DNA of 40,336 bases from Catajapyx aquilonaris. Its lineage: Eukaryota. Under the pieces are notes generated by a model, which was not told the origin of the DNA, searched no databases, and saw only the letters and a list, made by a program, of their open reading frames with translations. Position 1 is the first letter of the stretch. Each line of letters starts with the position of its first letter. Positions 56 through 40,336 of this stretch are shown here, piece by piece. Location: contig JYFJ02003559.1 of NCBI GenBank assembly GCA_000934665.2, positions 1-40,336 of the forward strand, in the 5' to 3' direction. The position numbers were made by a program, and so were the translations under genes.

Positions 56-2920
56 TTACATTATATTTGCAAGCAACATTTTAGCAACGCACATATTCGG
101 AAAACAACCAAATAACAAAATACCAAGGGCACACTTAAATCCTGCAATAAAATCGTAAATAAGCATCAGATTTAAGTCAGCACCTTTTCTGCTTGTTGTT
201 GATCTCAAAGATCTAGTTGCAGGAGGAGAAATCTGGGATTCTGGGTCTATTTTCGTTTCCCTTGATTTTTCCCTTGGCTTCCCTCGGCCACTCCTAGTTA
301 CAGCTTCTGCCTGATCCACACTCAGTTGTTGTGCAGGTTCAGGATCTTGAGCTACACTCAATTGTTGTGTGGGTTCAGGATCTTGATCCACACTCAATTT
401 TTGTGTTGGTTCAGGATCTTGACACACACTGGGTGGTTCAGGGTCTCGAGCGACACTGACGTGTTGGGCCTGTTCAGGTTCTTCATCCACACATTCTTCC
501 TTCACATGAACCTGAATGCCATTATCCAAGTTTATGGTGCTGGAGCCTACATCTGGATTCTTCTCACCCACGTCACTGATGAGTTTTTTCTGGGCCTCCT
601 GAGTGAATTCCAAAAACTCCCACCACATCTGCACCTTCCCATGGCACACGCGACATATTTTTTTTGGAAGGGGATCTTCTTCCCCTATCTGCAACTGAAA
701 ATAGGCATTAGAATAATAATTCAAGAGTAGTACCACTTGTAATGTGTAAGTTCTCACTTGATATTACATTATCCTACCTACAGTCCTTTAACCCCTTCGG
801 CCCCAGATCGGCCCGAACCACACAGTTTTTGGCTTACGCGTACTCCGAAGATACGGACATGATATTTTGCAAATAATAACAGCTATACTTACGAGATCTG
901 GGAAAACCCTATGAATGTGTCTGGAACCATTTTACTCGTCTAGAAGTCCCTAAATTAATTTCCAAAAAAGGGCTATAATAACCCGAAATTGGACTACTGC
1001 CGCCCAACCTTTAGGCTGATTTAATTATGAAATGCGTGAAAATATGCGGAATAGCAACCTTGAGAACCATGCCAGAGGAATTTGCTGAAATCGTCGTGCT
1101 TTGCGAGAAATAAATTAATACCTATTTGCGGCTTTCTGGCACTTCGGAAAACTTCGGAAAACTCCCAAATTTATTTGTTTCTCATGAAGTACGACGATTT
1201 CAGAAAATTCATCTCATACTCATTTAGGAATTTTCCTAAGTGCTAGAAAGCCGCAAATAAATATTAATTTATTTCTCGCAAAGTACGACGATTTCAGCAA
1301 ATTCGTCTGGCATGGTTCTCAAGGTTGCTATTCCGCATATTTTCACGCATTTCATAATCAAATCAGCCTAAAAGTTGGGCGGCAGTAGTCCAATTTCGAG
1401 TTATTATAGCCCTTTTTTGGAAATTAATTTAGGGACTTCTAGACGAGTAAAATGGTTCCAGACACATTCATAGGGTTTTCCCAGATCTCGTAAGTATAGC
1501 TGTTATTATTTGCAAAATATCTTATCCGTATCTTCGGAGTACGCGTAAGCCAAAAACTGTGTGGTTCGGGCCGATCTGGGGCCGAAGGGGTTAAGCATGA
1601 GACAGACATGACGTCACAAGAAAACGTCACTACTACACACTAATCTGAAGCACGTGTGAGGATTCAAAAGACCTGAAATTGGAGGGAAAGTGGTGGTGAT
1701 TCGGAACTTGAGAGGGAGGAAGAGCCGGAATGGAGGTGGGGTGAACTTGACATCATGTCGTTGTCTTGCTTAAAGGACTGTAACTGAGGACTGGGTTCTC
1801 ATGAGATTTTACGATCCTCAAGAATATAAATCCTGCAGAACCACTCCCTCCTGAGCCCTGCTCCCATCTCCTAAAGCCCTGTAACTTTAGGCCATCCACA
1901 ACAAGTATGGACTGGACAAAAAATATGTCTCTGGATGGCATTTGTATTCTACAGTTTGTACAGGTGAAATTCCTACCATTAAATTACAGTAATACCCCAA
2001 TTGTTACTTAGCAAGGCAAGTGGATAATGTAGATCTGGTCCAATGTGCTGATAAACTGGCATTCCCCCTGGCCCTACCAGGATCGTAGGCGTGGAAGAAG
2101 GGGCTTGGCAATCAAAGATGGGGCTGGGGATGTTACTATGCCTATTATACCCAACACCTGCACCTCTGCCTCTGTGCCTCATCCCTTCCTCCTGCACAGT
2201 CGAGTCTGGCAGGGAAAAATATCAGTATATCTGAATGTTCGGCCAGATATAAGTCAGGGGATTGCTGTATTCAATCACAGCTATGCTTCAAGAGCATAGA
2301 GATGTGTGCTGTTTCAAGTCTCAAATGCTCCATATTCAGACCAAACCTGAATCAATGTCTTTAAAATCTAAGATCTTGGCAGGATGAATTTGACCAATTT
2401 TGTCCTAAATGGGGTCTCAGGGACCTTATGTTCAACTTATATATGTTTGCATTATTAGAAGTTGCACTGTACTTTTGCAGTTAGGCAACAGGGAAAATGG
2501 GCCCTTGTCAATAGGGATGTGAGCTAAATTCTGGCACATGCAGTGCAATGATGCGAGGCTTCAAGTACAATGCTTAGCAATTAATTGCATGTCCACCAAT
2601 GAGCTTGTGAGTCCTTATTTATGTTCTATCAAAACTCTGGGAAGATGCTCATTGAAGGTGATGGCTGCCTAGTCCATCCTAACTGGACATACACTGCCTC
2701 TCGTTACGCCTTGGGTTGTCATAGCGAGTGTGTGGCTGGTAGGCATGCTTACAGTGCTGGAGGGGAAGCACTTGTTGATCTTGTCCAGTAGCTCCAGCTC
2801 CTTCCCCTTCTTGCTGAAGACGTGCACCCCGTCTCCGGCATCCTTGGCGCACACCCTGCACAGCCTGGACAGATGCTTTCTTTTCTTGCTGCTGCTGCTG
2901 CTGCGTGTGCCGCTCACCAT
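56..2920 (-). CDS. ZAD (zf-AD) domain protein, N-terminal part. Exon 2920-2753 is spliced to an exon starting at 688; the 3' end is unresolved and probably continues left of the window
   Basis: The phase-0 join ACT|GTAAGC (2752) to TTGCAG|ATA (688) reconstitutes LCRVCAKDAGDGVHVFSKKGKELELLDKINKCFPSST-IGEEDPLPKKICRVCHGKVQMWWEFLEFTQEAQKKL. This is the CxxC...LPxxICxxC pattern of the ZAD domain, followed by an acidic VKEE linker. No C2H2 fingers are seen in the window. The start at 2920 is the nearest in-frame ATG. Confidence 0.85.
312..492 (-). repeat. Coding tandem repeat, about 33 nt (11 aa, QDPEPxQQLSV), roughly 5 degenerate copies in the ZAD linker
   Basis: Recurrent ggttcaggatcttga...acactca units; protein ARDPEPPSV-CQDPEPTQKLSV-DQDPEPTQQLSV-AQDPEPAQQLSV-DQ. 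Confidence 0.9.
781..1780. mobile_element. Older Tc1/mariner-like MITE (about 197 bp once the nested element is removed), TA target duplication
   Basis: TA at 779-780 and 1781-1782, termini CAGT...ACTG. The reconstructed left end tacagtcctttaagcatgagacagacatgacgtca matches the reverse complement of the right end, tacagtcctttaagcaagacaacgacatgatgtca. Confidence 0.7.
792..1590. mobile_element. Non-autonomous piggyBac-like foldback MITE, 799 bp
   Basis: TTAA at 788-791 and 1591-1594, termini CCCCTTCGG...CCGAAGGGG. Near-perfect inverted arms of about 360 bp (792-~1151 vs ~1230-1590) surround a spacer of about 80 bp. No transposase ORF. Confidence 0.92.
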
Positions 2921-18414: not shown

Positions 18415-21071
18415 ATGAAGACGCATCTGGCGGCTGCCACAGCCGTCCTTTTAACCCTCTTCATACAGGCAAGTCCCCTCTTTTGTCCCATGTCTTTGAG
18501 AAACAATGGGGTTGGCTTTTTTCCATGAAAAGAAAGAAAAGAAGGGCGTGAAATATGATAAAGCATTGTCCGAACTAACTGTAAAAGTTGGTCACCTCAT
18601 GAAGGAATGCGAGCGAGAGCCGAACCTTATGCAAGTCAGCGATGTCTGTCGGAGCTCCTATGCTTCTGGTTGCTGGGAGCGTTCACACGGTGGGCTCCAC
18701 CCCGAATGATGATCATGATTATTCTGGTGACCTACTTCCGCTGCCCCTGGGCGTGTTAAAAGTGCGTACTCACCATCCCCAATCCCCCGTCTCTCCCCTT
18801 ACATGGGCGGCTAATTTCGAGCTCCTTGCCCATCCTCCTCCAGGGCAGGGTAGGTTCCTGTTCTACATTCCGCTTTGTTCCGCCACCGAACGATGGACAT
18901 CCTTACAGAGAAAGAGAGAGGGAGAAAAAATGGCTCATCCACGCCCTTCTTTTTTGACTTCTTTTCATCTGGGATCTGAATTATTATTGCCACCAATCTT
19001 AAGTTTCTTCCTGTATGTATCTCAACTTTCACCAGCAATTGGCGCCTTTTCTAGAAGCAATTAAGGCGCACTGATGACAATGTGCTGAGTCATGACATCC
19101 GCAATTGTCCTTACAGAGGGTTCGAAATGAAGAAGTACCTCCGAGTGGATCGGGTTCATCGAATAACCTGAAGCCAGAGCACAGAGCTGGAGGATTTCCT
19201 TTGCCTCACTATGGTCCTCCACTGCCTATACCTTCTGGCCCGTCGTCGACGGGGTACGGGCCGCCATCGGGAGGAGATGACCTTTGGCCTCTGGGAACTC
19301 CCGACATGCCGCAGATCAAGCATCTGCAGGTTCAGTGCGAGAAAACTCACATGAGGGTCAACATAGAGTTCGATCGTCCGTTCTACGGAATGATCTTTTC
19401 GAAAGGTCATTACAGGTCAGTAGTACCGATGTTGGAGGATTTGCGCTGTTAAATCAGAAGGGTTGTAATTATTTCTCTCTGCAGCGATCCGCACTGTGTG
19501 CATCTACCTCCTGGTACGGGTCACCTCAGTGCCACATTCGACATTTACCTGAACGGTTGCGGGATGACCTCATCGTCCAACCAGCACGGAGCTTACGGAC
19601 AGCCTTCTCCTAGCGGAAGCTTTGTTGAAAATACTATCATCCTGCAATACGATCCTCTTGTCCAGGAAGTGTGGGATCAAGCCAGAAAGCTTAGGTGCAC
19701 GTGGTATGACTTTTATGAAAAGTCTGTCACCTTCAGGCCATTCCAGGTGAGTGTTACCCTACTAATTAGCGAACTCCTCATTTGAAACCCGGCAGCGACT
19801 AATTGCGATTTGTATTAGGTTGATATGCTGAATGCCATCACAGCCAACTTCTTGGGTGACAACCTGCAGTGCTGGATGCAAATTCAGGTGGGCAAGGGCC
19901 CATGGGCATCGGAAGTGTCCGGGATAGTCAAGATCGGTCAGACCATGACCATGGTCCTGGCCATCAAGGACGACGAGAACAAGTTCGATATGCTGGTCCG
20001 CAACTGTGTGGCCCACGACGGAAAGAGAGCTCCGATCCAGCTGGTGGACCAGTACGGGTGTGTCACCAGACCCAAGATCATGTCGAAGTTTCAGAAGATC
20101 AAGAATTTCGGCTCGTCGGCCTCTGTGGTCTCGTACGCCTACTTCCAAGCGTTCAAGTTCCCTGACTCGATGAACGTACACTTCCAGTGCGTGATCCAGG
20201 TGTGCCGGTACCAATGCCCCGAGCCAAAGTGCGGCGGAGGAGGCGGGATCCTTTCAGACGAGTACGGGCCGCCCCAGGGCCACCCGGACCCACGGCACCC
20301 TGCCGGAGCCTACACAGAACCGGTGGCTGAGGGAGTACCGTTGCCCCTCAGCGGGCCCGGTCTGCACAGCGGGCCCGCCCTTAGCGCCAGTGGGGCGCCG
20401 CCTCACCTGCCGCCCCTTCCCCCTCTCAACCAGCCCATCCCTGCTCCTCTCTTGGTCTCCGGAAAACCCGCCTTCATCAAGCTGCCTCAGCAACATGTCC
20501 CCGGAGGTTATCCGGTTAAGCGGGAAGGTGTTGCTCCGGAGGAACCCACCTTCGCAGCTCTCGGGGGACGACCCCGATCCGTCGATGTCGAGGTGTCCGC
20601 CACTACCCTTCGAAGCGCCTCCAAGAATAACCACAGACCAGCGAGGGTAAGTAACCACCACATATAAGTGGACAGTATAACGCCGAAGAGACAACTTACT
20701 AATCATTTCTGCTTCCTCAGAGTGTCAGGGTGTACCGGCGAGAGGCTACGGACATGACGGACATTGAAACCACTCGTGTGATCCAAGTGGTGGCGCCTGG
20801 CGACGTGGCCTTCAGCCTGAATGGTGCCAACGAGACAGTGGTGGTGGAGACCAGCACTAGCTTCGGAGGCGAGGGAGAGAACAGCATCTGCATGACGATA
20901 CCCAGCTTCGTCGGAGGCCTCATCATGCTCTTGCTACTCCTGGTGGTCGCCTGCTTAGTCTCGGCCTTCCTCTTCTTCCGCATCCGGTCCCTGGACCAAA
21001 AGTCTTCCACCACGACGTTCATCCGAGGAGGATACGACAATCCAGAGTTCGTCAAGATGAGCTCCAGCTAG
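18415..21071 (+). CDS. dyl: Dusky-like ZP (zona pellucida)-domain cuticle/apical ECM protein, about 597 aa; exons 18415-18468, 19117-19415, 19485-19746, 19819-20646, 20721-21071
   Basis: Signal peptide MKTHLAAATAVLLTLFIQ; ZP domain PQIKHLQVQCEKTHMRVNIEFDRPFYGMIFSKG...QARKLRCTWYDFYEK...CWMQIQVGKGPWASEVSG...FQAFKFPDSMNVHFQCVIQVCRYQCPEPKC; Pro-rich spacer; basic furin-like site RVYRR; TM helix FVGGLIMLLLLLVVACLVSAFLFF; short tail. All splice phases are consistent (1794 nt). The dusky family is secure; dyl rather than dy is from recall of the family sequences. Confidence 0.93.
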
Positions 21072-22624: not shown

Positions 22625-25600
22625 TCAGTTAGAGGCAGTTGAATATTTTTTGGTCTGGGGATGAGGTACGGAGAATCGAGATGGCGCCTTTGTGCCACCA
22701 CTTTTCTTTCTCTTGTAATCATTGTCTTCTCTGGTGGTACTGGTGGCGTCGTCCTCTTCATCACTCTCCTCGACATCTTCTTCCTCCACAGTAGAGTCGC
22801 GGTGATCATATTTCATTTCCTTCGCCCTCTTTGCGTCTTCATATTTCATCTTAATATTAGCCACTCTGAAAAGAACCTTAAGAGGTTATATCTCCTTGTG
22901 TAAGAGTGTTAGTCCACGACAGTTACCTCCATCGGTAGCAAGCATCCCTCAAGCTGTTGAGCATCAACTGGAAGTTGTGCTGCAGCTGCTTGGGTGCAGG
23001 CGTATAGCTGGATGCAGCCTCGAGGTCCGTGTCTGACTGAGTTTGAGGCATGGGAGGAGCCCCATATCTTTGGCCAACTTTCAGTCGCATGCCCCTTTGG
23101 AAGGCCTCTATCTGCAAAACGACGTTGTCCAGGCGGAGTATCCTGACCGAAATGTAATGGTTCAACTTCAGACACAATGGCTGCAAAGGAGGTGCGTGGA
23201 CGTGCGGGGAAGTTTGGGTCCACTTCCACTTGGTGGTCAGGCCATGGATTGCATCCAGTCGTACACCCTCCCATGGTGTGTATGTCACCCTATACACATG
23301 GCATTAATTACTGCGCAACAATGATCACCTTGGCTACTCACCTGATGTGTCCTTCGTCGTCATAGATGACCCCGTTTCCGTCGTTGGTAAAGATAGCCAG
23401 GACTACCTTCTGCTCCGGTGAATCGCCTGCTTTCAACACGGTGAATTGAAAACCTTCGTATGAAACGGATTGGGTTAGTCGATGTCACATTCCTGGTTCC
23501 AACCTTAAGTGTACCGTACAATACCTTTGTGAAAGGCTGATATAATAACTGCAGGTGAGCCATCTGGATAAAGTACTTCTCCTGTTCCGTTTGAGAAAAA
23601 GGTACTGAAGATCTTATTATCAGGGTAGAAACGATGTCGTATGCCTTCGGCCTTCGAAGGAGCCCTGGACAAGATACGACATAACCAACAACGTGCAGGA
23701 AATGCAACAACAAACTCTTACCATTCAGGTTGCTCTTGAACCAGAAAAGTGGGTTCCTCCTGAGTCTTCAAAAGACCATCCGGGTCAAATGGAAAGTACA
23801 CGGGCTTGTGGCCTGTTTGCAGGTGGTCGGGGATAATGGTATTTCCGGCGAAGGAACCTGCCTTCTTGGGCCCTCCGACTGTAAGTATGGCTGGTTTGAC
23901 CGGCTCTATGGATATTTCCGACATGGCATCGCTCCTCCGCCTGATGCTACCGTCCTGGGCGGTGTAAGTTTCAGAATGCCTCGGTACCGACGGCAGCACC
24001 GTCCAACCCATATTGGCGTATATGCGCTGAGACAGCAGATAGGACAGGGTACCCGGAGTGTCAGCTAAATAGAGAAAGGCATGTTCAAGTGGTACTTACT
24101 GAGACAAGAAATTGACTATTAAATGTGTCATATTCTTACGTTGTCTGCCTCCATTTCTCTTCTATTCGTGTGCAAAGAAAATAGAGAAAAAAATTATTCA
24201 AACTGTCAGACAATAACATACAGTATTATCCTAGCAATAGATCAGCTTATTTATCAACATGCATTCGATTCCATCCCTTGCTGTACTGTGCTGACACATC
24301 AGTTCCAATGCAGCAAGAATGTCTACAGTGCGACAACCACACCGGAGCATTCGCGTTTAGAACAATGAAGATAAGAACCTGCTGCAGTCGAGCAGAATCG
24401 GCTTCGCTGACGATTGCTGACACGTCCACTGATTTTTTGCGACCTTTTGCGCCGGGTACGATAGAAAAGTTGTCCGCCCCGGCCATCAACTCTTTGATTT
24501 TGTCTCATCAACGAGTCACTCCCCTCGGCAGGTTTTTTTCCTTTTATAGTACTAGTTTTGCCTCTTCGATTCATGTTGACAACTAAGCCGACACAACAAT
24601 CAAATTGTTTTCATATAGTTACACTTGGAAACCGACTCACCAATGATGTCACAGACTGTTTTGCCTTCTTTGTGTATTCTATTTCCCACAAAAGGGCGGC
24701 TTGCTTGCAGCAATCAGGCTGAAGCAAAACAAAGACAATTGAATGCATCTGAGCCTTTAAAATAAAATAATTAAATACGGTGTCATCAGTACCTTTCTGT
24801 TCAGATCGTATAATTTACTGCAGAAGGTGCATCTTGCTTTGCCTGCAGGGATCACGTCTCCAAGTTTTCTGCCTCCCTTACTTTTTTTGTTCTTGGGAGG
24901 ATGGAGTTTTTTGATGAACAGTTCTGATGGAAGTGCCTGAAGTGACTTGACCGCGGTGGTTAGAAGCCCAAGACGTGTGAATCTCTCTTCAGGTGTTTCC
25001 GAGGCTGCCGGAGGTTTACTCGTTTCTCGAATGTATCGAAGAAGTTTAGGCATGTCTGCATCAGGCGGTAGCATAGCCGGGGCTCCTTTATTGAAATGTC
25101 CAGCCTTTTCCCAATCTTTGGGGTTACTTATCTGAATTCAAAATCACTCATTAATACTGCCGTGGACTGATGGGTATTTACAGAGTGATGATGGCAACTT
25201 ACATGATAAGTGTCCATCTTATTTAAAAGTACTTCCATACTCTCGGTTTGTTCTTTTAGTGCCTTCTTCACTTTACGACCGGCCTTGGATACGTGGCTAA
25301 TATCCTTTATTCTTCCTACCAAATCGTCAGGGACAGTAGACTTTCTGTGCTTCTTTTCATCTCTTTCTACTATCAAGTCATGAGAACGCCTTTTTTTGGT
25401 TTTAAAGCTGTCAAAATATATAATAAATTTAGCTTAAATTATGAAGCGCGATGGTGCTGTCAGGCGAACTTATGCCTTGAGGCTGAATCATAATTATTTA
25501 ACAATATTATCTGGAAAATTATGTAATACCTGGGTCTCCTGCCTACTTTCTTTCTGGATCGGTCAGAATCGAGGGAATCTTTACGACTGTCGTCGTCATA

Positions 25601-27257
25601 AGTGTCTCTTCGCCTGTTCCCTTTAGGTTTTCGACGCCTGTCATCGTCGTCAGAGTCTCTTCCTCTGTCCCCTTTAGGTTTTCGGCGACTGTCATCGTCG
25701 TCAGAGTCTCTTCCTCTGTCCCCTTTAGGTTTTCGACGCCTGTCATCGTCGTCAGAGTCTCTTCGCCTGCCCTCTTTGGATCGTTGGTAATCCTTTTTCT
25801 CGTCTCGTCTTTGGGTCTGTCTAGAGCTTGGTTTAGAGGAATCTTCATCCCTCGAGTCGGATCTGGCTCTCCGTTTTGATTGAGGACGGAATTCTTTCTC
25901 AGCGTCACTTCCATATGATCTCCTCCTGTGTTTCTTCCGAGCCAGTGAGTCATCGTCACTGTAGCTGTCACGAGATTTTAGGTCCGCATGTTTCTTCCTA
26001 TCGCGATCTTTCTTTCTTACATATATCTCGTTGAGTGTACCGGAGTCGTCTTCTCGAGACCTCTTTCTATCTCGTGCTTTTTTACCACCCTTTTTGTCTT
26101 CACGTCGGCTCTCCTCATCATCCATCATACGAAGAACTTCTTCGCTGACAGACCTAGGAAGTCTCCCGGGAGATTTCTTCATTTTGCGCTTACTTCGTTG
26201 GCCATCTTCATCAATAATTTCGCTAGGCGTCAATGATCCTATTGATGTCCTTCTTCCTTTTCCCTTTACACGCCTACTCCCTTCGTCGCTTTCCTCCTCG
26301 AAGCTTAATCTCCTATCAGACCCCTTTGATCTTGACCCCTTTCTAAGGATAGACTTTCTTGAGGGGAGTTCTCTTCGTGACAAGAGGAACCCTTTCTGCT
26401 GAGCGATAAATTCGGCAAAGAGCTGTTGCTGTGCATTCAGACGGTGCAACCACCCCCATCCGCCCTGTACACCTTTACTCCTCTTGGTTTCGTCCCATGG
26501 AAAAGCTTCATCGACGACATATGACTCGTCTTCTTCTTCTCGCTCCTCCATGGCCAAACGAAGCAGTTCGTGCAAGCTCAAAGGCTGGGCGGGGTCTCCC
26601 CACGCAGCACCCGACTGAAAATCACAACGAAAATGTCAAACCATTTTTCTTGGGCAAGTAATAATGTCGCGTACCTTCTTCTGTATGACAAGAGTCTCCA
26701 GAAATGCGCTCATTACTGGAGTTGGAGGAGGGGCGTAGTCGGGATGAATGTAGACTGGCTCTGACGGCTTCTTCGCCGATGGCATCCGTGGCTCTGTCTG
26801 TGACTCTGATAGGTGCATTCTCTTCTTATTAATGGAATCTTGGAGGGATTCCCATGATGACGCTAATGTTGGCGATGGTACAATTTCAGAGTGGCTTCGG
26901 TGCAGTTAAGTGCCGCAAAAGTCTTCTAGGTTTATTATATTTTCTGAATCTACTCGATGAGCTGAATCGAATGACACTATGTACAGAGCGCGGAAAGTTT
27001 ATTTTCATTTATTCATTGTTATAACTTGCAATTTCAAAATTCAATTACTCTTGCACCAAGCATTTCCCCACTCTAGGAATAGTGTCATTCGACTCAGCTC
27101 ATCGAGTAGATTCAGAAAATATATAGAAACCTGCAAGAATTTTGCAGCACTAAACTGCACCCTTACCTTCAGAGTTTTCTTCCGAGTACTCTAGCACTAC
27201 TTCCAGGTCATTGGAGGAAGCGGTCTGGGTACTTGTAGGGCTCTCCTCTTCGTCCAT
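22625..27257 (-). CDS. ERICH6/FAM194-like protein. Exons 27257-27167, 26838-26675, 26614-25530, 25407-25203, 25131-24793, 24718-24641, (~24490-24379, 5' edge uncertain), 24161-24140, 24064-23722, 23664-23525, 23453-23342, 23289-22927, 22865-22625
   Basis: The spliced C-terminal half reads CTFC...PDCC, TLSYLLSQ...GWT, FYPDNKIFSTFFSNGTGEVLYPDGSPAVII...VLAIFTNDGNGVIYDDEGHIR...KWKW...HAPPLQPLCLKLNHYISVRILRLDNVVL...RLKVG, which follows the FAM194 domain motif order of ERICH6. The N-terminus is long and charged. GT-AG introns have consistent phases except around 24380-24640. AATAAA at 22502-22497. Confidence 0.82.
25585..25770 (-). repeat. Coding tandem repeat, 51 nt (17 aa RDSDDDDRRRKPKGDRG), about 3.7 copies
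   Basis: Near-identical units tgtcatcgtcgtcagagtctcttcctctgtcccctttaggttttcg on the + strand. Confidence 0.92.
26899..27161. mobile_element. MITE (about 263 bp, TIRs about 80 bp) in intron 1 of the ERICH6-like gene; possibly PIF/Harbinger-like
   Basis: ggtgcagttaagtgccgcaaaa...ttttctgaatctactcgatgagctgaatcgaatgacactat (26899-26980) is the inverted match of atagtgtcattcgactcagctcatcgagtagattcagaaaa...gcactaaactgcacc (27079-27161). The right flank is TTA; the left flank is degenerate. Confidence 0.8.
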
Positions 27258-32900: not shown

Positions 32901-34308
32901 TTGTACATTGGGCATCAACGGTAACCTAGGGTATGAGATGGGTTTAGCATGGAGCATGCCAGTAAGGTCTGGAAGGCCGAAGGAGGACCATTGAGGATTG
33001 GATACATGGAAACATGGGAAATGAAACTGAATTGCCGGTACCGGTAGTGGATTTGGTCGCATATCTTCCGCTTTGGCTTGTTATACATGCAAGTAACATA
33101 CATTTAGGAGGAGAGAAAAAACTTGTATACTTTCCCTGCTCAACTGGTCATCTGGAACAGCATAATCGAGGGAAATTATTCGTCATCTCTAATCAGGAAT
33201 AATTATTGTTGGCCTATTTGATATCACGAGCAATCCTATTGTGCATAAAGATCGTTGTGGATTCGGTTGCAAACAGATCATTATATCACGGGCAGTAGTC
33301 TCATATTACTTAAGTATTTGAAATCATCCGAGTGTAACGGCCTCATTTTCGTTACACCAATTTGCATTACTTTAAAAACAAGTGTAACAACATTAGCTCA
33401 TTCTTATTAATATTGTTATTCTCACGGTTTTCTAGGTGTCACACTTATGAGGCCAATTAAGCACTCTATGGACCTGTAGTGCTTTCAAATCTCAATTATT
33501 GACAAATAACTCGATAGTGTTTTTTTGACACATATTTTTCTTGGCATGTGTCACATATCAGTTCGCTTGCATGACCACTTCTTTTGTCAAATATTCCAAC
33601 CGTACGGGTTGGCATACAATATATTTCTTAATAATTTGTGCCGAGAAGGAATGAGTCCAGTCCTAGTATACGTACTGTACGAAAATCGAAATCTCAACAG
33701 CAATTATCCAGTCCCGTCACAGAAACAACGTCGTACAGTACCTGTAGTGATATAACACTGTAGTTCCAAAAGAGAAATTTGACTCTTTTTTTGCACAACA
33801 CCCCATGAAACTGGTTATGAAAAACAACCTGACATCTGATTTGCATTCGTCGTAATCTTGAATGTCAGCTTACTTAGCAAGTAAGGTAATGTATGCTCGG
33901 TTCGATTTCAGGCAGAAAAAAACACATCTCAAAATGCCGATACGCTTGTGAATCCGGTTAATATGTTGTTATGTCAGCCACACCCAAGTCAATTAGCGCT
34001 ATAGGTGTCGAATTATATAATGCCAGTTTACTTAGGAATTAACACAGTAAAGGAAGTTTACGAGTAGGGTTGTAATCCTACTGCGCGATGCAAGGTTGAA
34101 TCATGCACTTGCTGAAATAGTTATCCATTACCCCTTCGTGCTGAGTAGCCCGTTTTCCTTCTAGAATTACGATCAACAAGATTTCCTTGGCGTATGATAC
34201 ACACAAAAACGCGGTAGTCTTATCTATCAATCGCACATTATAAATACATAGCCTCATCCCTATAATGTGTAGCTGTACAAAGTTCAAACCATTCACCATG
34301 GTAGGTTT

Positions 34309-35366
34309 CTACTCATTATACTGTAGAACCAGATTGAAGTGATATATCAACCACATGGCCACATGGGAGCAGATTTGAATAATGTTTCCTTTTACCTGTC
34401 CCAATGCCTGCTCCTTTGCATCCTGTCCCGCCAGTTCCTTGTCCTGTTCTTCTGCTGCCAATACTTGACCAAAGTCCTCCGCATCTGCATCCGTCTCTTG
34501 GTCCTCAGCTTCCTCTGCCTGTTCCTCTGCCGGTTCCTTCTCTGCCTGGCCAATGTCCAAGCAGCTACCATTGCTGGAATTTTCTTCAGCATCATTACAC
34601 TTCCGGACACATCATAAAACTGACATGTTTTTGAGGTCCATCCAGCCATATGCACAGCATTCCAAAACTCGTCCATCCAATTCCTGAATCAAATCCCAAA
34701 ATATAGGCAGGCCATTGTTGTCCCTTATGTGAATATTATAAAGGTCCTGTTTATTATACTGCATATAGTTACTACCTGGACAGAGCGTCAGCACCTCTGA
34801 GATAATGGTCTGTCCTTCTGTGTGTCAAGTGCCAGGTCATGGAAGAGCGACATGTGACCTCCAGCCAATTTATCATGTTATTGGCCAATTTCCCTGATCT
34901 GTGTCCGCTACTCAGGCCATTGTTGTCAGTCAGGAGAACGACCTTTTTCGATAAAAACTTACTCCGCCAGTGATAGAGAGCCCAGGCAGCGTTCATCATT
35001 TCAAAATTAGTGGCATCCGAACCACAGCTGTAAGTGAACGGATGTAGAATAATCAGATGCTGCTATTATGATGAAAGGAATGGGTATCATAATATACTTA
35101 TCTGCTATACGCGAAATGCAGGATGCAAGAAATTTTAAGCGAATTATCACTTTGATTGCCTTTAAAAAATATATTTTGTTGTTGTAGCCACTAAATTACT
35201 TATTACTATACGGAATATCTGCTGACTAGTATGAAACATACCTGTGGGTTTGCGAATAAAATTCGCAGATGACTCTTCCGGAATTCCCTTTGAAAAAGCA
35301 CATGCCTCCGGCTCTATTGCGGGAAGCGTCCACTACTACTGTCACATCATACCGATTGCGGAACAT
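34309..35366 (-). CDS. Stand-alone retrotransposon-type RNase H protein, paralog C, with intact catalytic tetrad; exons 35366-35242, 35027-34776, 34683-34396, probable last exon from 34320
   Basis: Spliced product MFRNRYDVTVVVDASRNRAGGMCFFKGNSGRVICEFYSQTHSCGSDATNFEMMNAAWALYHWRSKFLSKKVVLLTDNNGL...YLRGADALSRNWMDEFWNAV...CQFYDVSGSV. The motifs DAS (D13), E51, TDN (D76) and ADALSR (D122) are those of DIRS/Ty3-type RNase H. Two phase-2 GT-AG introns restore the frame. The frame of the tail is ambiguous (see findings). Confidence 0.8.
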
Positions 35367-35857
35367 ATTTAAGTACAATAAAATGACCGCGGGTAAGTAA
35401 CTTTTTGCATATGTAAATTATGTTTTTAGGCGGAGTAAAAAAAAAGAGTCCATCCACGACCAGATTATTTATTGCAGCAGCTATATACTCTCGGTGCTAA
35501 GTAACACAATCATACAGTATTCTACATAATAATAAGTAGAGTCCTACATTACTGCCTTTGCCCTAATGGTTCAGGGCTTACAATCCTGGGTGATTGATTC
35601 ACCCACGGCTCCCGTGAACCTGCAGCACCTAAGGGTGGGTTTTGGTGCATAATAAATACAGTTTATAGTAGAAGAGTAGATACAGTAAATCCAGAACAAG
35701 TGATTGATAGACTAAGTGTTGCGTATTGTACTTAATGTTGTTGGTGACAATGAATAACAAGGATCAACAATATATTTGTCCTGTGTTCTTGGATTTACTG
35801 TCAGCCACTCAACATCAGCTGTGCATTCATATTCATATTACATGTACTCTTGAAGAA

Positions 35858-36328
35858 CTAATGACCACATGCTTTCACAACGCTTATGTTCTCTGAAATG
35901 TCACTATATGCCTGGTTGTCCATAGTAGGTTGCAGATTGTCCAAGAACCAGAAGAAAATTTGGGAGTTCTTCTTCGGATCTTGTTTCCAAACTGGAAGGC
36001 GGACTGCTGCCTCCAAATACCCAGCACTTGTAGGTTGGGATTTGGACGCAATCGTGATGCTGCAGCGGTACTTCCTCTCTAGAAACGTCTTCGTTGGCTC
36101 CTTCACGTCATCTGCGGCGTAAACAGTGACGCACCGACCTTTGACATGTCTGCGCCAGAAGTGGATCGCTGTTGACAGGTTGTCCAATAGGTCCATGGCA
36201 TTGCCCAGTTGTTTGCTGTGGTAAAACTCGCAATAACGAGTGTCCTGGCTTTGGTAAACGCAATACCCTCCTGCAAAACTGCCTTTTATGGCAATCCCAA
36301 CTGCCACATCTTCCACTATCTGAAACAT
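35858..36328 (-). CDS. RNase H-fold paralog B, 156 aa, intronless CDS, catalytic residues lost
   Basis: Colinear with paralogs A and C: MF start, AGGYCVY, CEFY, N..TAIHFWR, VTVY, YLEAA, YSDISENI. The aligned catalytic positions are A/L/A/V. AATAAA at 35473-35468. Confidence 0.72.
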   Translation of the reverse strand: MFQIVEDVAVGIAIKGSFAGGYCVYQSQDTRYCEFYHSKQLGNAMDLLDNLSTAIHFWRRHVKGRCVTVYAADDVKEPTKTFLERKYRCSITIASKSQPTSAGYLEAAVRLPVWKQDPKKNSQIFFWFLDNLQPTMDNQAYSDISENISVVKACGH

Positions 36329-36539
36329 GCTGCTACTTGCACAAATTCTCTACGACAACTAAAGTCGATGTTGATCAATCCACCTGGAAAAGCAATGATT
36401 TAAAGTGTAGCTTTTAACTCGATTAAATTGCAGAAATCAGTCTCGGGAGAATCGAGGTAAATAAAAAATACACGCAACACAGCTTGCATTCGGAATTGTT
36501 TTATTGACCACAGTTATATTGGTCAAGGCCAGTTTTAAA

Positions 36540-37172
36540 TTAAGATTTGCAAGATGTGAACCCGTAAATGATGAGAACCAGGATAAGAAGTAGGCCTAAA
36601 GCAATGGCAGCGATGCACAACTTCCTCCTCAGTGCCCTCCAGGTTTGATATGACCCCCTGACGTCAACGCTATCAGACACATCTCGAAACTTGCATTCTG
36701 GCAGGACCTTCTCCACAGCCGAATAAAAGTGATACATATTCTGACTGTGGCCAGCATCTCCACGTGACAATTGCTTGATGGCCACCAGATATGGGTTGTC
36801 TGAAGGTGTTGTCCGGAGATCTATGACGCAGGCAAAGTTTTCTTGTGCTTCCAAACTAGCCCTGAACCTTCGTAGTTCTCGAGCCGATGGATTCAGAATG
36901 GACATAAGCCCTTGGGAGTCGCTGAGAAGAACCATCTGGGTCTTCTCCTTGGCCGCCATAATCGGCCGCCAATGTCGAAGTGCAACAATCGCATTTCCGG
37001 TCTGATGTTCCAGAGGATCTTCAGACAGAAGTTGATGGCTCTTGTGGTAGAATTCGCAATGGGACGCACCGCGATGGTGGTAGACACAAAGGGCAGCCAG
37101 ACACTCCCTGGTGCTGTCAACCGCTATGGTGACTTCATACTGATCATCTTCACCAAGTTCTCTGCAAAACAT
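36540..37172 (-). CDS. RNase H-fold paralog A, 210 aa, intronless CDS, with a C-terminal transmembrane anchor
   Basis: YEVTIAVDS, CEFY, NAIVALRHWR, MVLLSDSQGL, YLVAIKQLSR and CKFRDVSDSV align to paralog C. The tetrad reads D/Q/D/K. It ends RALRRK-LCIAAIALGLLLILVLIIYGF-TSCKS. AATAAA at 36505-36500. Confidence 0.8.
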   Translation of the reverse strand: MFCRELGEDDQYEVTIAVDSTRECLAALCVYHHRGASHCEFYHKSHQLLSEDPLEHQTGNAIVALRHWRPIMAAKEKTQMVLLSDSQGLMSILNPSARELRRFRASLEAQENFACVIDLRTTPSDNPYLVAIKQLSRGDAGHSQNMYHFYSAVEKVLPECKFRDVSDSVDVRGSYQTWRALRRKLCIAAIALGLLLILVLIIYGFTSCKS

Positions 37173-39423
37173 AGCTGCTCAAGAAGTGCGCAATGGTAAG
37201 CTATACGTCACTGCCAGACTTAGCACGCAAAATGTTATTGTGACGTGATAAGTAAGCGGAAAAAAATCTCACGGTGTATTACACACATGATTGTGTACAT
37301 ATGCAGAGTTTTGCTAATTTTCCTGACACACATTAATACTTACGAACTTTTATCACTCTCGGCACTATGATTTCCGCCTATGGAAACCAACAAATTGCTG
37401 TCGTCCGACATGACCAACTCTGCCTCTCTGCCTGTCATCGAGTACCTTATCGCTATCACCATAGAAATATTATCTAATCTTAATCCCAGGTTCGTTACCC
37501 TGCAAAAGTACATATAGCCAGTAATAATACGTTACAACCATTGCGCCAAATTTGCTCCTATCCCTCAAATTACAATTAATCATTAAAAGAAGGTCATACC
37601 AACCTGCCTTGGCCAAGTCGTTGAAAAGTCATCAGTCAGGATTGGTTAGGTTAGTTTTTTTGTAATTTTTTTTTTTCAAAAATAGTGAAACTCATAGTGG
37701 GGCATATCTTTCACCGCAAAACAGGTGCCGCTTGTGTTGGGTGAACTCAAAAAGGGTAGTTGAGACTTCCCCAATCGATATGGGGCCTGTCACCCCTGGA
37801 ATATTTTGTTGCCCCCTCCATCCCCCTATACTCCCCACTTTCCACCCGCGCAGGTTGCTGCTCCATGCGATTAATAATTTTCCAGTCGGCTGCTGCGTCT
37901 GATTCTACCCTGTACATACCCTGGTGTAGCTCCAGTTACTATATACGCCCCTGCCATTTGTACAAAGGATCAATAACGTTGCGGGCTTTTCATCTGAAAG
38001 TGCAGCATGCGGCATATTTTCCACGCTGTAATGACAGTTGAGAGAGGGGGAAAAAATTGTGGGAAAATGCGTTTTCACAGCGGAAAAGGAGGCCATTTCT
38101 TATAACGAATATTTTTTAAAAAAACTGGATGCAAATTGTAATTGCAAACGTTCGGACGTGCCTTGACTTTTCGTTTCCGTCTTTTGTACGCGACGGGATG
38201 CCTTAATTAACGGGTTGCGTTGTATTCTAATATCGACTTACTTTTAGCCCTTGGACTGGTCTATAGTCTTGTAACACACGCAGGGGTTGTGTCATTCGGA
38301 CCTTTTATTTTATTCCTTTCTATTATTACATTTTGCAAAATATGCAATTACTTGCCCAATACTTTTTTAATATGCTTTTCTCTTATCACGGAAAAGTAGG
38401 AGCCCTAATTTGCAATAACGTATTCAAAGCTATTGTTGAGAAATATTATGCAATGTGACTTTAAGATCGGTTTTATTTTAATTTACCATTACTTGTTGCA
38501 GCGTATACAATGTATGAATACCTGTAATTCAGTTTGGTCATAATCTTCGACAATCGAGTCACGCGATGTGATTGTTAGAGAATTGAATCTAGCATTTTCC
38601 CGTAAGTGAGAATATGTTATAAATATCTCAAGGGGATTACTTATAAAGATATACTTTACACTCACAAAGTATACGCGTCAAGGACTACCCTACATGTCCG
38701 ATCGGATCAGTTCGTGCAAAAATGTATGAGTGATAATGATCCTGAGCAGTCAGGACATGATCCCTTTAAAAAGGGTGCAGCAGGTGATGCCTTGATCACG
38801 TAACGGATCAATGTGGCAGCCAACCAGCAAGCAAGGCTTATTCGTGTCATGAATGCTGCGGAGTTGTCGCCGCGCTGCTTATTAAATGTTTCATAATGTA
38901 CGGCTGGGTGTATAGCCTCACTTTTATGACCTGGGAGGAAGGGAAATGGGGTGCAATGAGGGTGAAGGGTGGAAAAAAGGAGTAAGCGCACTCGGCGCTC
39001 CATCAATAACAATAACAAGAGGAATAATTATGATGGTCGATAGCATCGTCGCGTAGTGATCCATCGAGGATCGTCCGTCGCTGGAAGCTGTGAAACGGAG
39101 GCTGGCTCCTGGCTGGAACCTCTGGAAGCAAGCTGTGCGGGGGCTGCAGGCGAAGGTGGTTCAAGGTACGCACGCCCACACGCTTGCTGCTGACCCTGCC
39201 ATGGAGCCTGCCAGCTGAGGGGACACTCCGGGATGTGGCCTCCTGCTCTCCCTTCCCGCTTGTCCAGGTCATGTGCGGTTCCAGGCCGACCATGAGTGGG
39301 GCTAAGAAGAAGCGGAAGGGAGGGCAGCAGAAGCAGTGAAGAGGATTCAGGGAGGGAAATGTTGGCCAAGGACCACCACACCTGAAGACAGCAATCGTGG
39401 TCCCAATAGGAGAAGGAGGGAGG

Positions 39424-39920
39424 ATGGCTGACGTCCCCAGCACTTGTAACGGAAGCAAGGCATACTTCATGGGTCACTCCATCTTTGGGCACACTGGCCT
39501 CATCAATGACCTGGCAGACTTCACCCTCATGGACCAGGCCATGCAGCCACCACTGTTCCCAGCAGCCAAGGGAGTGGAAGCAGCTGTGGTATCCTGGCCC
39601 GTCCCCAGCGCCAAGGAAGAGGTGAACAGGAGCGAGCACAGCCTGACCCCTTCTGAGGTGAATGCAATGCTGGAGAAGCTGATCAGGAAGAACGGGCTGA
39701 AGGTCAAGATAGTGTCCCCTGACCCGCCACCGCCGCCGCCACCACCACCACCCGTCACACTGCCCACTGTGCTGCAGCAGGATATGACTGTCACAGCAGT
39801 GGCGCCAGTGGTGACCCCTCAGGTTGTGACAACTAATGATGCAAATGCAAACACAAGTACAAATATGCTACCTCAAATTGGGTGTCAATCATGGAGGTCG
39901 CAGGAGAACAGCAGTGGGCA
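39424..39920 (+). CDS. Probable coding exon of an unidentified Pro-rich protein, continuing beyond the window
   Basis: GC3-rich open frame from aggATGG (39424) containing a P10 tract and ending at a perfect donor GTAAGT (39921). An acceptor CCCGCTTGTCCAG lies upstream near 39267. No domain recognised. Confidence 0.45.
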
Positions 39921-40276
39921 GTAAGTATGTTAAAGTACACGTATAACCTCTACACATTAAAGTGTGTCAAATGTAACAAATTATGGTTGGTTGGATCAAT
40001 ACATGTAATATGCAGTCAGCATATCTATGGAGTAATGCATAAGAAAAACTTGCTATCAGTATCGACATATCCTGTGCTGAAGTCATCCAGGAAGGAAACA
40101 AAGAGCCCAAGGATTCATTTTTGCCATGCTTCCTGATAAATTGTATAGTACAGGATGTGCTGAGAAATATATCTGACCTTGATTCTCACAAGTCACATAG
40201 GCCTACAATATGAAAGAAGCGTATTATATGTTGCATAATAAATGACTTTCTACAAACTGATAGGATGACATACCAT

Positions 40277-40336
40277 CAGGGCCGCATTAAGGTTTTTTGC
40301 GCCCCAAGCCCGAAGAAGAAATGCGCCCCCTCCCCC
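40277..40336. mobile_element. Left end of a probable hAT-like MITE, truncated by the window end
   Basis: Begins CAGGGCCGCATTAAGG, followed by repeated GCGCCCC motifs running into a C-tract. No partner TIR or TSD is visible. Confidence 0.4.

Follow-up and report, generated by a model that had tools for sequence, protein, structure and literature searches.

That retroelement gag, env, protease and integrase have given rise to host genes is amply documented. For animals, hardly any stand-alone gene that descends from the reverse transcriptase (RT) RNase H domain has been described, to our knowledge. RNase H folds with a degenerate metal site are found in the retroviral RT connection domain and in the RH domain of Prp8, both of which serve as scaffolds. 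NYNRIN (CGIN1) is presented in PMC9447858 as a mammalian host gene with an RNase H plus integrase segment derived from Ty3/Gypsy pol. Our search of the literature on domesticated RNase H returned general reviews only, among the matches listed.

Among proteins inserted into membranes by a C-terminal anchor, those with a long, very hydrophobic segment and a weakly charged stub are directed to the endoplasmic reticulum (ER) via the GET/TRC40 route. The anchors of the mitochondrial outer membrane are shorter and less hydrophobic, with more basic flanks. The piRNA factor PNLDC1 is said to have a C-terminal anchor. For GASZ, a C-terminal mitochondrial anchor is described in PMC7072634. No paper joining the terms "tail-anchored" and "RNase H-like" was found in the literature searched.

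Here we describe gene A, which lies with two paralogs, B and C, in a 40,336-nucleotide stretch of DNA (the window). A preliminary description had proposed that A encodes an RNase H-like domain with a lost active site, fused to a tail anchor, and had drawn a parallel to PNLDC1 and GASZ.

Results

Gene A and Its Splicing

Gene A contains an unbroken ORF of 210 codons at 36540..37172 on the reverse strand, among the four longest ORFs of the 40-kb window. Its exons and nearby signals are as follows.

37344..37513 (-), upstream exon; its last 12 nt are the part present in the X5 contig, and its 5' limit is tentative
37162..37343 (-), intron of 182 nt, GTAAGT...TTTTGCAG, containing the ATG at 37172-37170
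36540..37161 (-), terminal coding exon, encoding residues 5-210 of the 210-amino acid ORF; stop codon at 36542-36540
36500..36505 (-), AATAAA poly(A) signal, which starts 35 nt past the stop codon of A

The intron is defined by one 490-nt contig of run X5, a run whose kind is not recorded as RNA. This contig is identical to positions 36684-37161 and then continues for 12 further letters, which are unique in the window and lie at 37344-37355 (0.02 chance matches expected). The acceptor used is at 37162/37161, in the context TTTTGCAG/A. With the GT-AG consensus at its borders, we read the contig as a probable spliced transcript of gene A. The upstream exon is open over 57 codons that include four ATGs, and its frame continues into exon 2 through the junction codon TC/A; it may be coding or belong to the 5' UTR. 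A possible further acceptor, TTTTGCAG/G, can be read from the sequence of this exon near 37503.

These observations bear on the 210-amino acid ORF of the preliminary description. The ORF itself matches what was described, but its ATG at 37172 is intronic in the sole transcript-like contig. Because the X5 splice removes this ATG and joins an in-frame upstream exon, the N-terminus of A is uncertain. A short N-terminus may be ancestral, since in B and C, too, an MF start lies only a few residues ahead of the first strand. At the other end, the X5 contig stops at 36684, and positions 36540-36683, among them those encoding the tail, lie outside its coverage. In the DNA run X1, the whole stretch is found in one contig, which is the sole one to align over the locus among 895,032 contigs; three other records share 18-29-base pieces with the A locus.

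Paralogs and Homologs

Two further genes on the same strand resemble A, and tblastn of the A, B and C proteins against the window finds exactly three copies.

35858-36328 (-), paralog B, 156 amino acids, directly downstream of A
35366-35242, 35027-34776 and 34683-34392 (-), paralog C, a putative gene of three exons, with GT-AG borders read from the sequence

The Smith-Waterman score of A against spliced C is 134, compared to 30.2 +/- 4.6 for shuffled sequences (z = 22; 0 of 500 shuffles reach 134), with an alignment that spans residues 10-169 of A. The corresponding z-values, also from 500 shuffles, are 12.7 for A and B and 7.1 for B and C. C matches the A locus in tblastn with an E-value of 2.5e-11, and in BLASTP A matches B (E 2e-7) and C exon 1 (E 2e-8); with C exon 2 alone, BLASTP of A gives nothing significant. 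All three genes are open (210, 156 and approximately 222 codons), at 21-34% local identity to A by BLASTP and tblastn. Neutral decay would not be expected to leave three open paralogs at such a distance, and we regard this as the best argument for function.

The paralogs have peculiarities of their own. The stop codon of A and the ATG of B are 212 nt apart, and in B no more than one of the four catalytic positions survives. An acceptor-like TTTCAG follows just after the ATG of B, as in A. The possibility that the three genes represent alternative terminal exons of one common upstream exon was rejected, as the acceptor-like site of B would be out of frame with the phase of that exon (TC/A TAG). 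In the exon model of C (34392-35366 (-)), the D-E-D-D set is intact. The predicted C-terminus of C is extremely Arg-rich over approximately 50 residues (NRQRNRQRKLRTKRR...), and another frame of the same stretch is acidic and rich in E, D and A. A complex prediction for A(1-178) with B, run without controls, gave no answer (score 0.00).

Outside the window, A is nearly alone. A phmmer search of 1.84 billion representative proteins gives one credible homolog, P0001 (107 amino acids, E 1.4e-51), which has 82% identity over residues 8-113 of A, no stop in 106 codons and an unchanged HQTGNA motif (Q57). The match ends at residue 113, short of the tail. Searches of word-indexed proteins with A as query, at near and at longer lengths, gave no homolog; a profile built from A, P0001, B and the C exons recovered P0001 only; and among metagenome contigs the single-protein query A gave 70 pattern matches, with no relatives among them. 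With one fragmentary homolog in 1.84 billion representatives, the conservation of A is barely documented.

The second phmmer match, P0002, covers 29 residues (E 1.4e-4) of a tandem-repeat protein, and we treated it as unrelated or uninformative. P0002 has 356 amino acids, arranged in tandem units of approximately 50 residues (SSDPTERQTVLSALTQWR...) that resemble the helix A region of A (SEDPLEHQTGNAIVALRHWR). These units may be a repeated RNase H-like fragment, or the match may be due to chance.

Fold and Catalytic Positions

Upstream of the tail, the product of A can be divided into two parts.

36753..37145 (-), predicted RNase H-like domain, residues approximately 10-140, assigned by homology to C, AlphaFold topology and fold matches
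36639..36752 (-), predicted helical linker, residues 141-178, weakly similar to C exon 3 (BLASTP E 0.013), with model helices at 140-156 and 159-168

A, B and the homolog P0001 match no Pfam family, even at E-values up to 10. The link to known families runs through C. Exon 2 of C matches positions 50-100 of RT_RNaseH (PF17917) with an E-value of 3.3e-4 and 21.2 bits, under the cut-off of 24.8; the ORF over exon 1 matches positions 22-65 of RT_RNaseH_2 (PF17919) with an E-value of 0.11, collinear with the exon 2 match. Among the protein-atlas neighbors of C exon 2, at 0.91-0.93, are clusters in which 10-15% of the members carry RVT_3 or RT_RNaseH; the best neighbor of A is an RVT_3 cluster, at just 0.77. 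A sequence search of the PDB gave no matches for A alone or for C exon 2 alone, and with the profile it gave one chance match (E 1.6).

From the single sequence of A, AlphaFold gives a pLDDT of 50, unusable for the domain. An alignment of five rows raises the mean to 60, still a poor model. In this low-confidence model, strands are placed at 12-17, 24-32, 37-43, 78-83 and 115-118, and helices at 53-73, 86-90, 95-108 and 127-137; the order b1-b2-b3-aA-b4-a-a-b5-aE is the topology of RNase H. The best Foldseek rows are HIV-1 RT, Ty3 RT (4ol8_B, prob 0.99), foamy virus RT and E. coli RNase HI, all of them weak matches with E-values of 2e-3 to 1e-2 (best 2.2e-3). VIA-align against 48,161 chains places mostly RNase H-like folds at the top, including Cas9 RuvC, Pelota, integrases and, with a weak Z of 5.8, the Prp8 RH domain. 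Against residues 346-459 of Ty3 RT, VIA-align gives Z 5.7, an rmsd of 3.5 and 92 aligned residues, and its best value for A is Z 6.9, in a range that VIA-align rates as common.

The RNase H-like domain of the preliminary description thus finds agreement in transitive homology through C, in the predicted topology and in weak fold matches. We think it likely that A is RNase H-like and descended from an RNase H of the RT type. As A has no profile match of its own and C stays under the cut-off, we class A as derived from or resembling RT_RNaseH and not as a scored member of that family.

The catalytic positions of A were assigned from its Smith-Waterman alignment to spliced C. D19 of A (codon 37118-37116) stands opposite the D of VVVDAS in C, and D85 (in LLSDS; codon 36920-36918) opposite the D of LLTDN. 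Q57 (in QTGNA; codon CAG, 37004-37002) stands opposite the E of FEMMNA, and K133 (in AIKQLSR; codon AAG, 36776-36774) opposite the D of GADALSR. Where C has D, E, D and D, A therefore has D19, Q57, D85 and K133, and the two replacements and two retained Asp reported earlier are exact in this alignment. In the AlphaFold model, D19 comes after strand 1 and D85 after strand 4, Q57 is at the start of the long helix A, and K133 is part of the last core helix; we take these to be the canonical places of the RNase H carboxylates. In HIV-1 RT, Glu478 is an essential residue of the RNase H active site, and PMC3632107, in its treatment of this residue, regards the change of Glu478 to Gln as RNase H-deficient. 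Since Q57 replaces the catalytic Glu and K133 the last Asp, A is most likely no nuclease, and the loss of activity can reasonably be inferred.

The C-Terminal Tail

The end of the ORF consists of a short basic motif and a hydrophobic segment.

36621..36638 (-), basic juxtamembrane motif RALRRK, residues 179-184, read from the sequence
36558..36620 (-), predicted transmembrane tail anchor, L185-F205, by hydropathy; followed by TSCKS (36543-36557) and the stop codon

The hydrophobic stretch that had been noticed after RALRRK, 21 residues long and ending five residues before the C-terminus, is L185-F205 by Kyte-Doolittle hydropathy. Its mean value is 2.95, and its best 19-residue window scores 3.13. 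The tail is the only confident part of A in both AlphaFold models; in the five-row model the mean pLDDT is 81 for residues 181-190, 92 for 191-200 and 76 for 201-210, with the maximum of the model in this region. The anchor is found in A alone of the three paralogs. B ends before the homologous place, and C has a basic stretch (ARQRR) at the place homologous to RALRRK, followed by an Arg-rich stretch instead of an anchor.

How often would such a tail be found by chance? We took all stop-to-stop ORFs of at least 100 amino acids in the six frames of the window (n = 66) and asked which have a 19-residue window of at least 2.5. There are four: A, an ORF scoring 4.5, the ORF that follows the ZP domain (see below) and one other. 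The 4.5 window presumably reflects a simple repeat that encodes poly-Ile. With 4 of 66 ORFs reaching 2.5, a chance origin of the tail of A is rather unlikely.

Outside the tail, no 19-residue Kyte-Doolittle window exceeds 1.0, whether the protein is taken as 210 amino acids or as the version lengthened by 57 codons. By hydropathy, no N-terminal signal peptide, described earlier as lacking, is seen with either start, and the upstream extension leaves the predicted topology unchanged. Further 5' exons could change it, since just 12 nt of the upstream exon are covered by the contig. A single transmembrane-like segment thus lies within approximately 30 residues of the C-terminus, with none seen near the N-terminus in either model, and the tail-anchored topology that had been proposed is a fair structural prediction. 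A dead RNase H-like domain in the cytosol on a C-terminal anchor would be a sound reading as far as sequence can show.

As to the membrane, the very hydrophobic 21-residue segment and the +1 C-terminal stub favor the ER over the mitochondrial outer membrane, and the ER is the more likely predicted target. Two other readings of the tail were rejected: a GPI signal, because no signal peptide is seen, and an anchor of the errantivirus env type, because the ORF runs unbroken from the RNase H-like domain into the anchor and further retroelement genes are absent from the ORFs scanned.

Genomic Context

Of the window's 168 ORFs with 70 or more amino acids, 150 were scanned against Pfam; the remaining 18 comprised A, scanned separately, and overlapping frames located in 25.5-26.8 kb and 34.3-37.2 kb. 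RT, integrase, gag and protease families were absent from the 150 ORFs, in which the matches are to zf-AD (under the cut-off), cuticlin/ZP and FAM194. In the region 33000-40336 there are no long direct repeats of the LTR type and no Rfam families. With no RT, integrase, gag or LTR, in single copy and with introns, the A/B/C locus looks like a cluster of host genes. A itself has what is expected of a domesticated gene: a single copy, a GT-AG intron and surroundings free of mobile elements.

Elsewhere in the window, a cuticlin-type ZP gene is found at 19096-21068 (+), with a weak CUT_N match at 19096-19449 and a ZP-C / CUT_C match at 19819-20664 (E 1.3e-10). The ORF at 20703-21068 (+) after the ZP domain has a hydrophobic window of 3.17, probably the ZP protein's own membrane anchor. 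Two exons at 22926-23717 (-) match the FAM194 family (E 2.8e-16 and 3e-6). An ORF of 363 codons at 25460-26551 (-) has no Pfam family; its product abounds in Arg, Ser, Asp and Lys and contains repeats of the unit DSDDDD(S/R)RRKPKG(D/N)R. The zf-AD match is in an ORF at 59-763 (-) and scores 26.7 against the 28-bit Pfam cut-off. Taken with the cuticlin-type gene, it points weakly to an arthropod as the source of the cluster. Finally, an ORF of 166 codons at 39424-39924 (+) contains a run of 11 prolines and no Pfam family; it may be the first exon of a neighboring gene.

Discussion

What kind of gene is A? We favor, with somewhat more belief than doubt, a transcribed host gene whose inactive RNase H-like domain is tail-anchored and acts as a non-catalytic scaffold or binder at a membrane. 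A, B and C would be tandem, very diverged paralogs descended from an RNase H domain that once belonged to an RT of the LTR-retroelement type, and ties to RT, integrase and LTRs would have been lost in all three. A would have kept the RNase H-like fold, most likely without nuclease activity. Its last 26 residues (the helix and the five-residue stub) would lead to post-translational insertion with the RNase H-like domain in the cytosol, a mode suggested by the C-terminal hydrophobic helix and stub together with the lack of an N-terminal hydrophobic segment. Held at the membrane in this way, A might serve as a scaffold or binder, for which any ligand is a guess. RNA:DNA hybrids are a doubtful choice, because isolated RT-type RNase H domains bind their substrate poorly without the rest of the RT. 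The adaptor role proposed earlier, in which A would recruit C, is likewise conjectural.

It is rather unlikely, in our judgment, that A is a transcribed remnant without function, i.e., a duplicated fragment of a retroelement RNase H that acquired its tail neutrally from the 3' flank. The near-orphan state of the family, with its one homolog fragment, is what such an account would lead one to expect, as are the degenerate catalytic residues of both A and B and the absence of the tail from B and C; a hydrophobic window is also present in non-genic ORFs (1-2 of the 66, leaving aside A and the ZP anchor). Yet all three paralogs are open at 21-34% local identity to A, a consensus splice site is used, the poly(A) signal is correctly placed, and the 82% homolog P0001 has kept the Q57 motif and acquired no stop over 106 codons. 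Lower still we rate the chance that the 210-codon ORF is the last exon of a larger gene, with 5' exons that add domains, a signal peptide or membrane segments, so that the product would not be tail-anchored. Such a gene is suggested by the splicing out of ATG 37172 in the X5 contig, by the in-frame upstream exon with its 57 open codons and by the acceptor-like TTTTGCAG/G near 37503. However, the 57 upstream codons contribute no hydrophobic window above 1.0, the ORFs of at least 70 amino acids in 37600-40336 have no Pfam domain at E <=0.01 apart from one chance-level match, and the MF start shortly before the first strand recurs in B and C.

Could A still be a nuclease, with a non-canonical site in which E55, D52 or D139 substitutes, or with three ligands? 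D19 and D85 remain, there are acidic residues near both substituted positions, and in bacterial RNase HI the fourth carboxylate is the least essential. We consider this very improbable all the same: a Lys at the fourth position would presumably bring a positive charge into the metal site, the 82% homolog P0001 has Q57 as well, and in HIV-1 RT the replacement of Glu by Gln is the classical change for RNase H deficiency, in the usage of PMC3632107. Finally, it is tempting to speculate that A, B and C make up a domesticated RNase H module whose members are sent to different places by their C-termini: C with an intact DEDD set and an Arg-rich end, B degenerate and soluble, and A dead and held at the ER or mitochondria on the cytosolic side, where it would capture RNA:DNA hybrids or retroelement replication complexes, or dock C. 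We give this elaboration very little credence; if true, it would point to a retroelement-derived restriction or RNA-processing system of an undescribed kind.

Under the preferred reading, a non-catalytic membrane-held protein, A is at present a lineage-restricted prediction behind which stand one transcript-like contig and one fragmentary homolog, and the evidence for its biological importance is thin. If the tail and the dead site prove to be conserved, A would offer a small, tractable example of how a nuclease fold became a membrane-tethered scaffold, with B and C as natural controls.

Among known systems, the RNase H domain of LTR-retroelement RTs (e.g., Ty3 RT, PDB 4ol8) has the same order of strands and helices as that predicted for A, and its pattern, DAS ... 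E..NA..AL..WR ... L[ST]D ... ADALSR, is intact in C and recognizable in A. In contrast to the RT domain, A is spliced and stands alone: a polymerase domain, an integrase and LTRs are all missing. No HMM matches A itself, two of its catalytic residues are replaced, and it ends in a predicted membrane anchor. NYNRIN and A are likened here by description and not by sequence. Both would be host genes that keep a retroelement RNase H domain, and the host role is unclear in both, for NYNRIN as far as the cited account of it goes. NYNRIN is a large, therian-specific fusion in which KH-like and NYN domains are joined to an integrase; A, in contrast, is small, contains the RNase H-like domain only, sits in a tandem array of three genes and has a C-terminal anchor.

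With tail-anchored proteins, including GASZ, A shares a lone C-terminal hydrophobic segment and a cytosolic N-terminal domain, both as predicted. There is no homology to GASZ, and by the usual rule the segment of A exceeds typical mitochondrial outer-membrane anchors in both length and hydrophobicity. The parallel to the piRNA factors PNLDC1 and GASZ that had been drawn does not hold beyond the position of the anchor: A, lacking any Pfam family, has no similarity to nucleases of the CAF1/PARN type or to ankyrin and SAM domains, and the anchor, being of the ER type by the usual rules, does not favor a mitochondrial or piRNA analogy. The RT connection domain and the Prp8 RH domain are each part of a large protein, whereas A would be a separate, small protein with a membrane anchor of its own.
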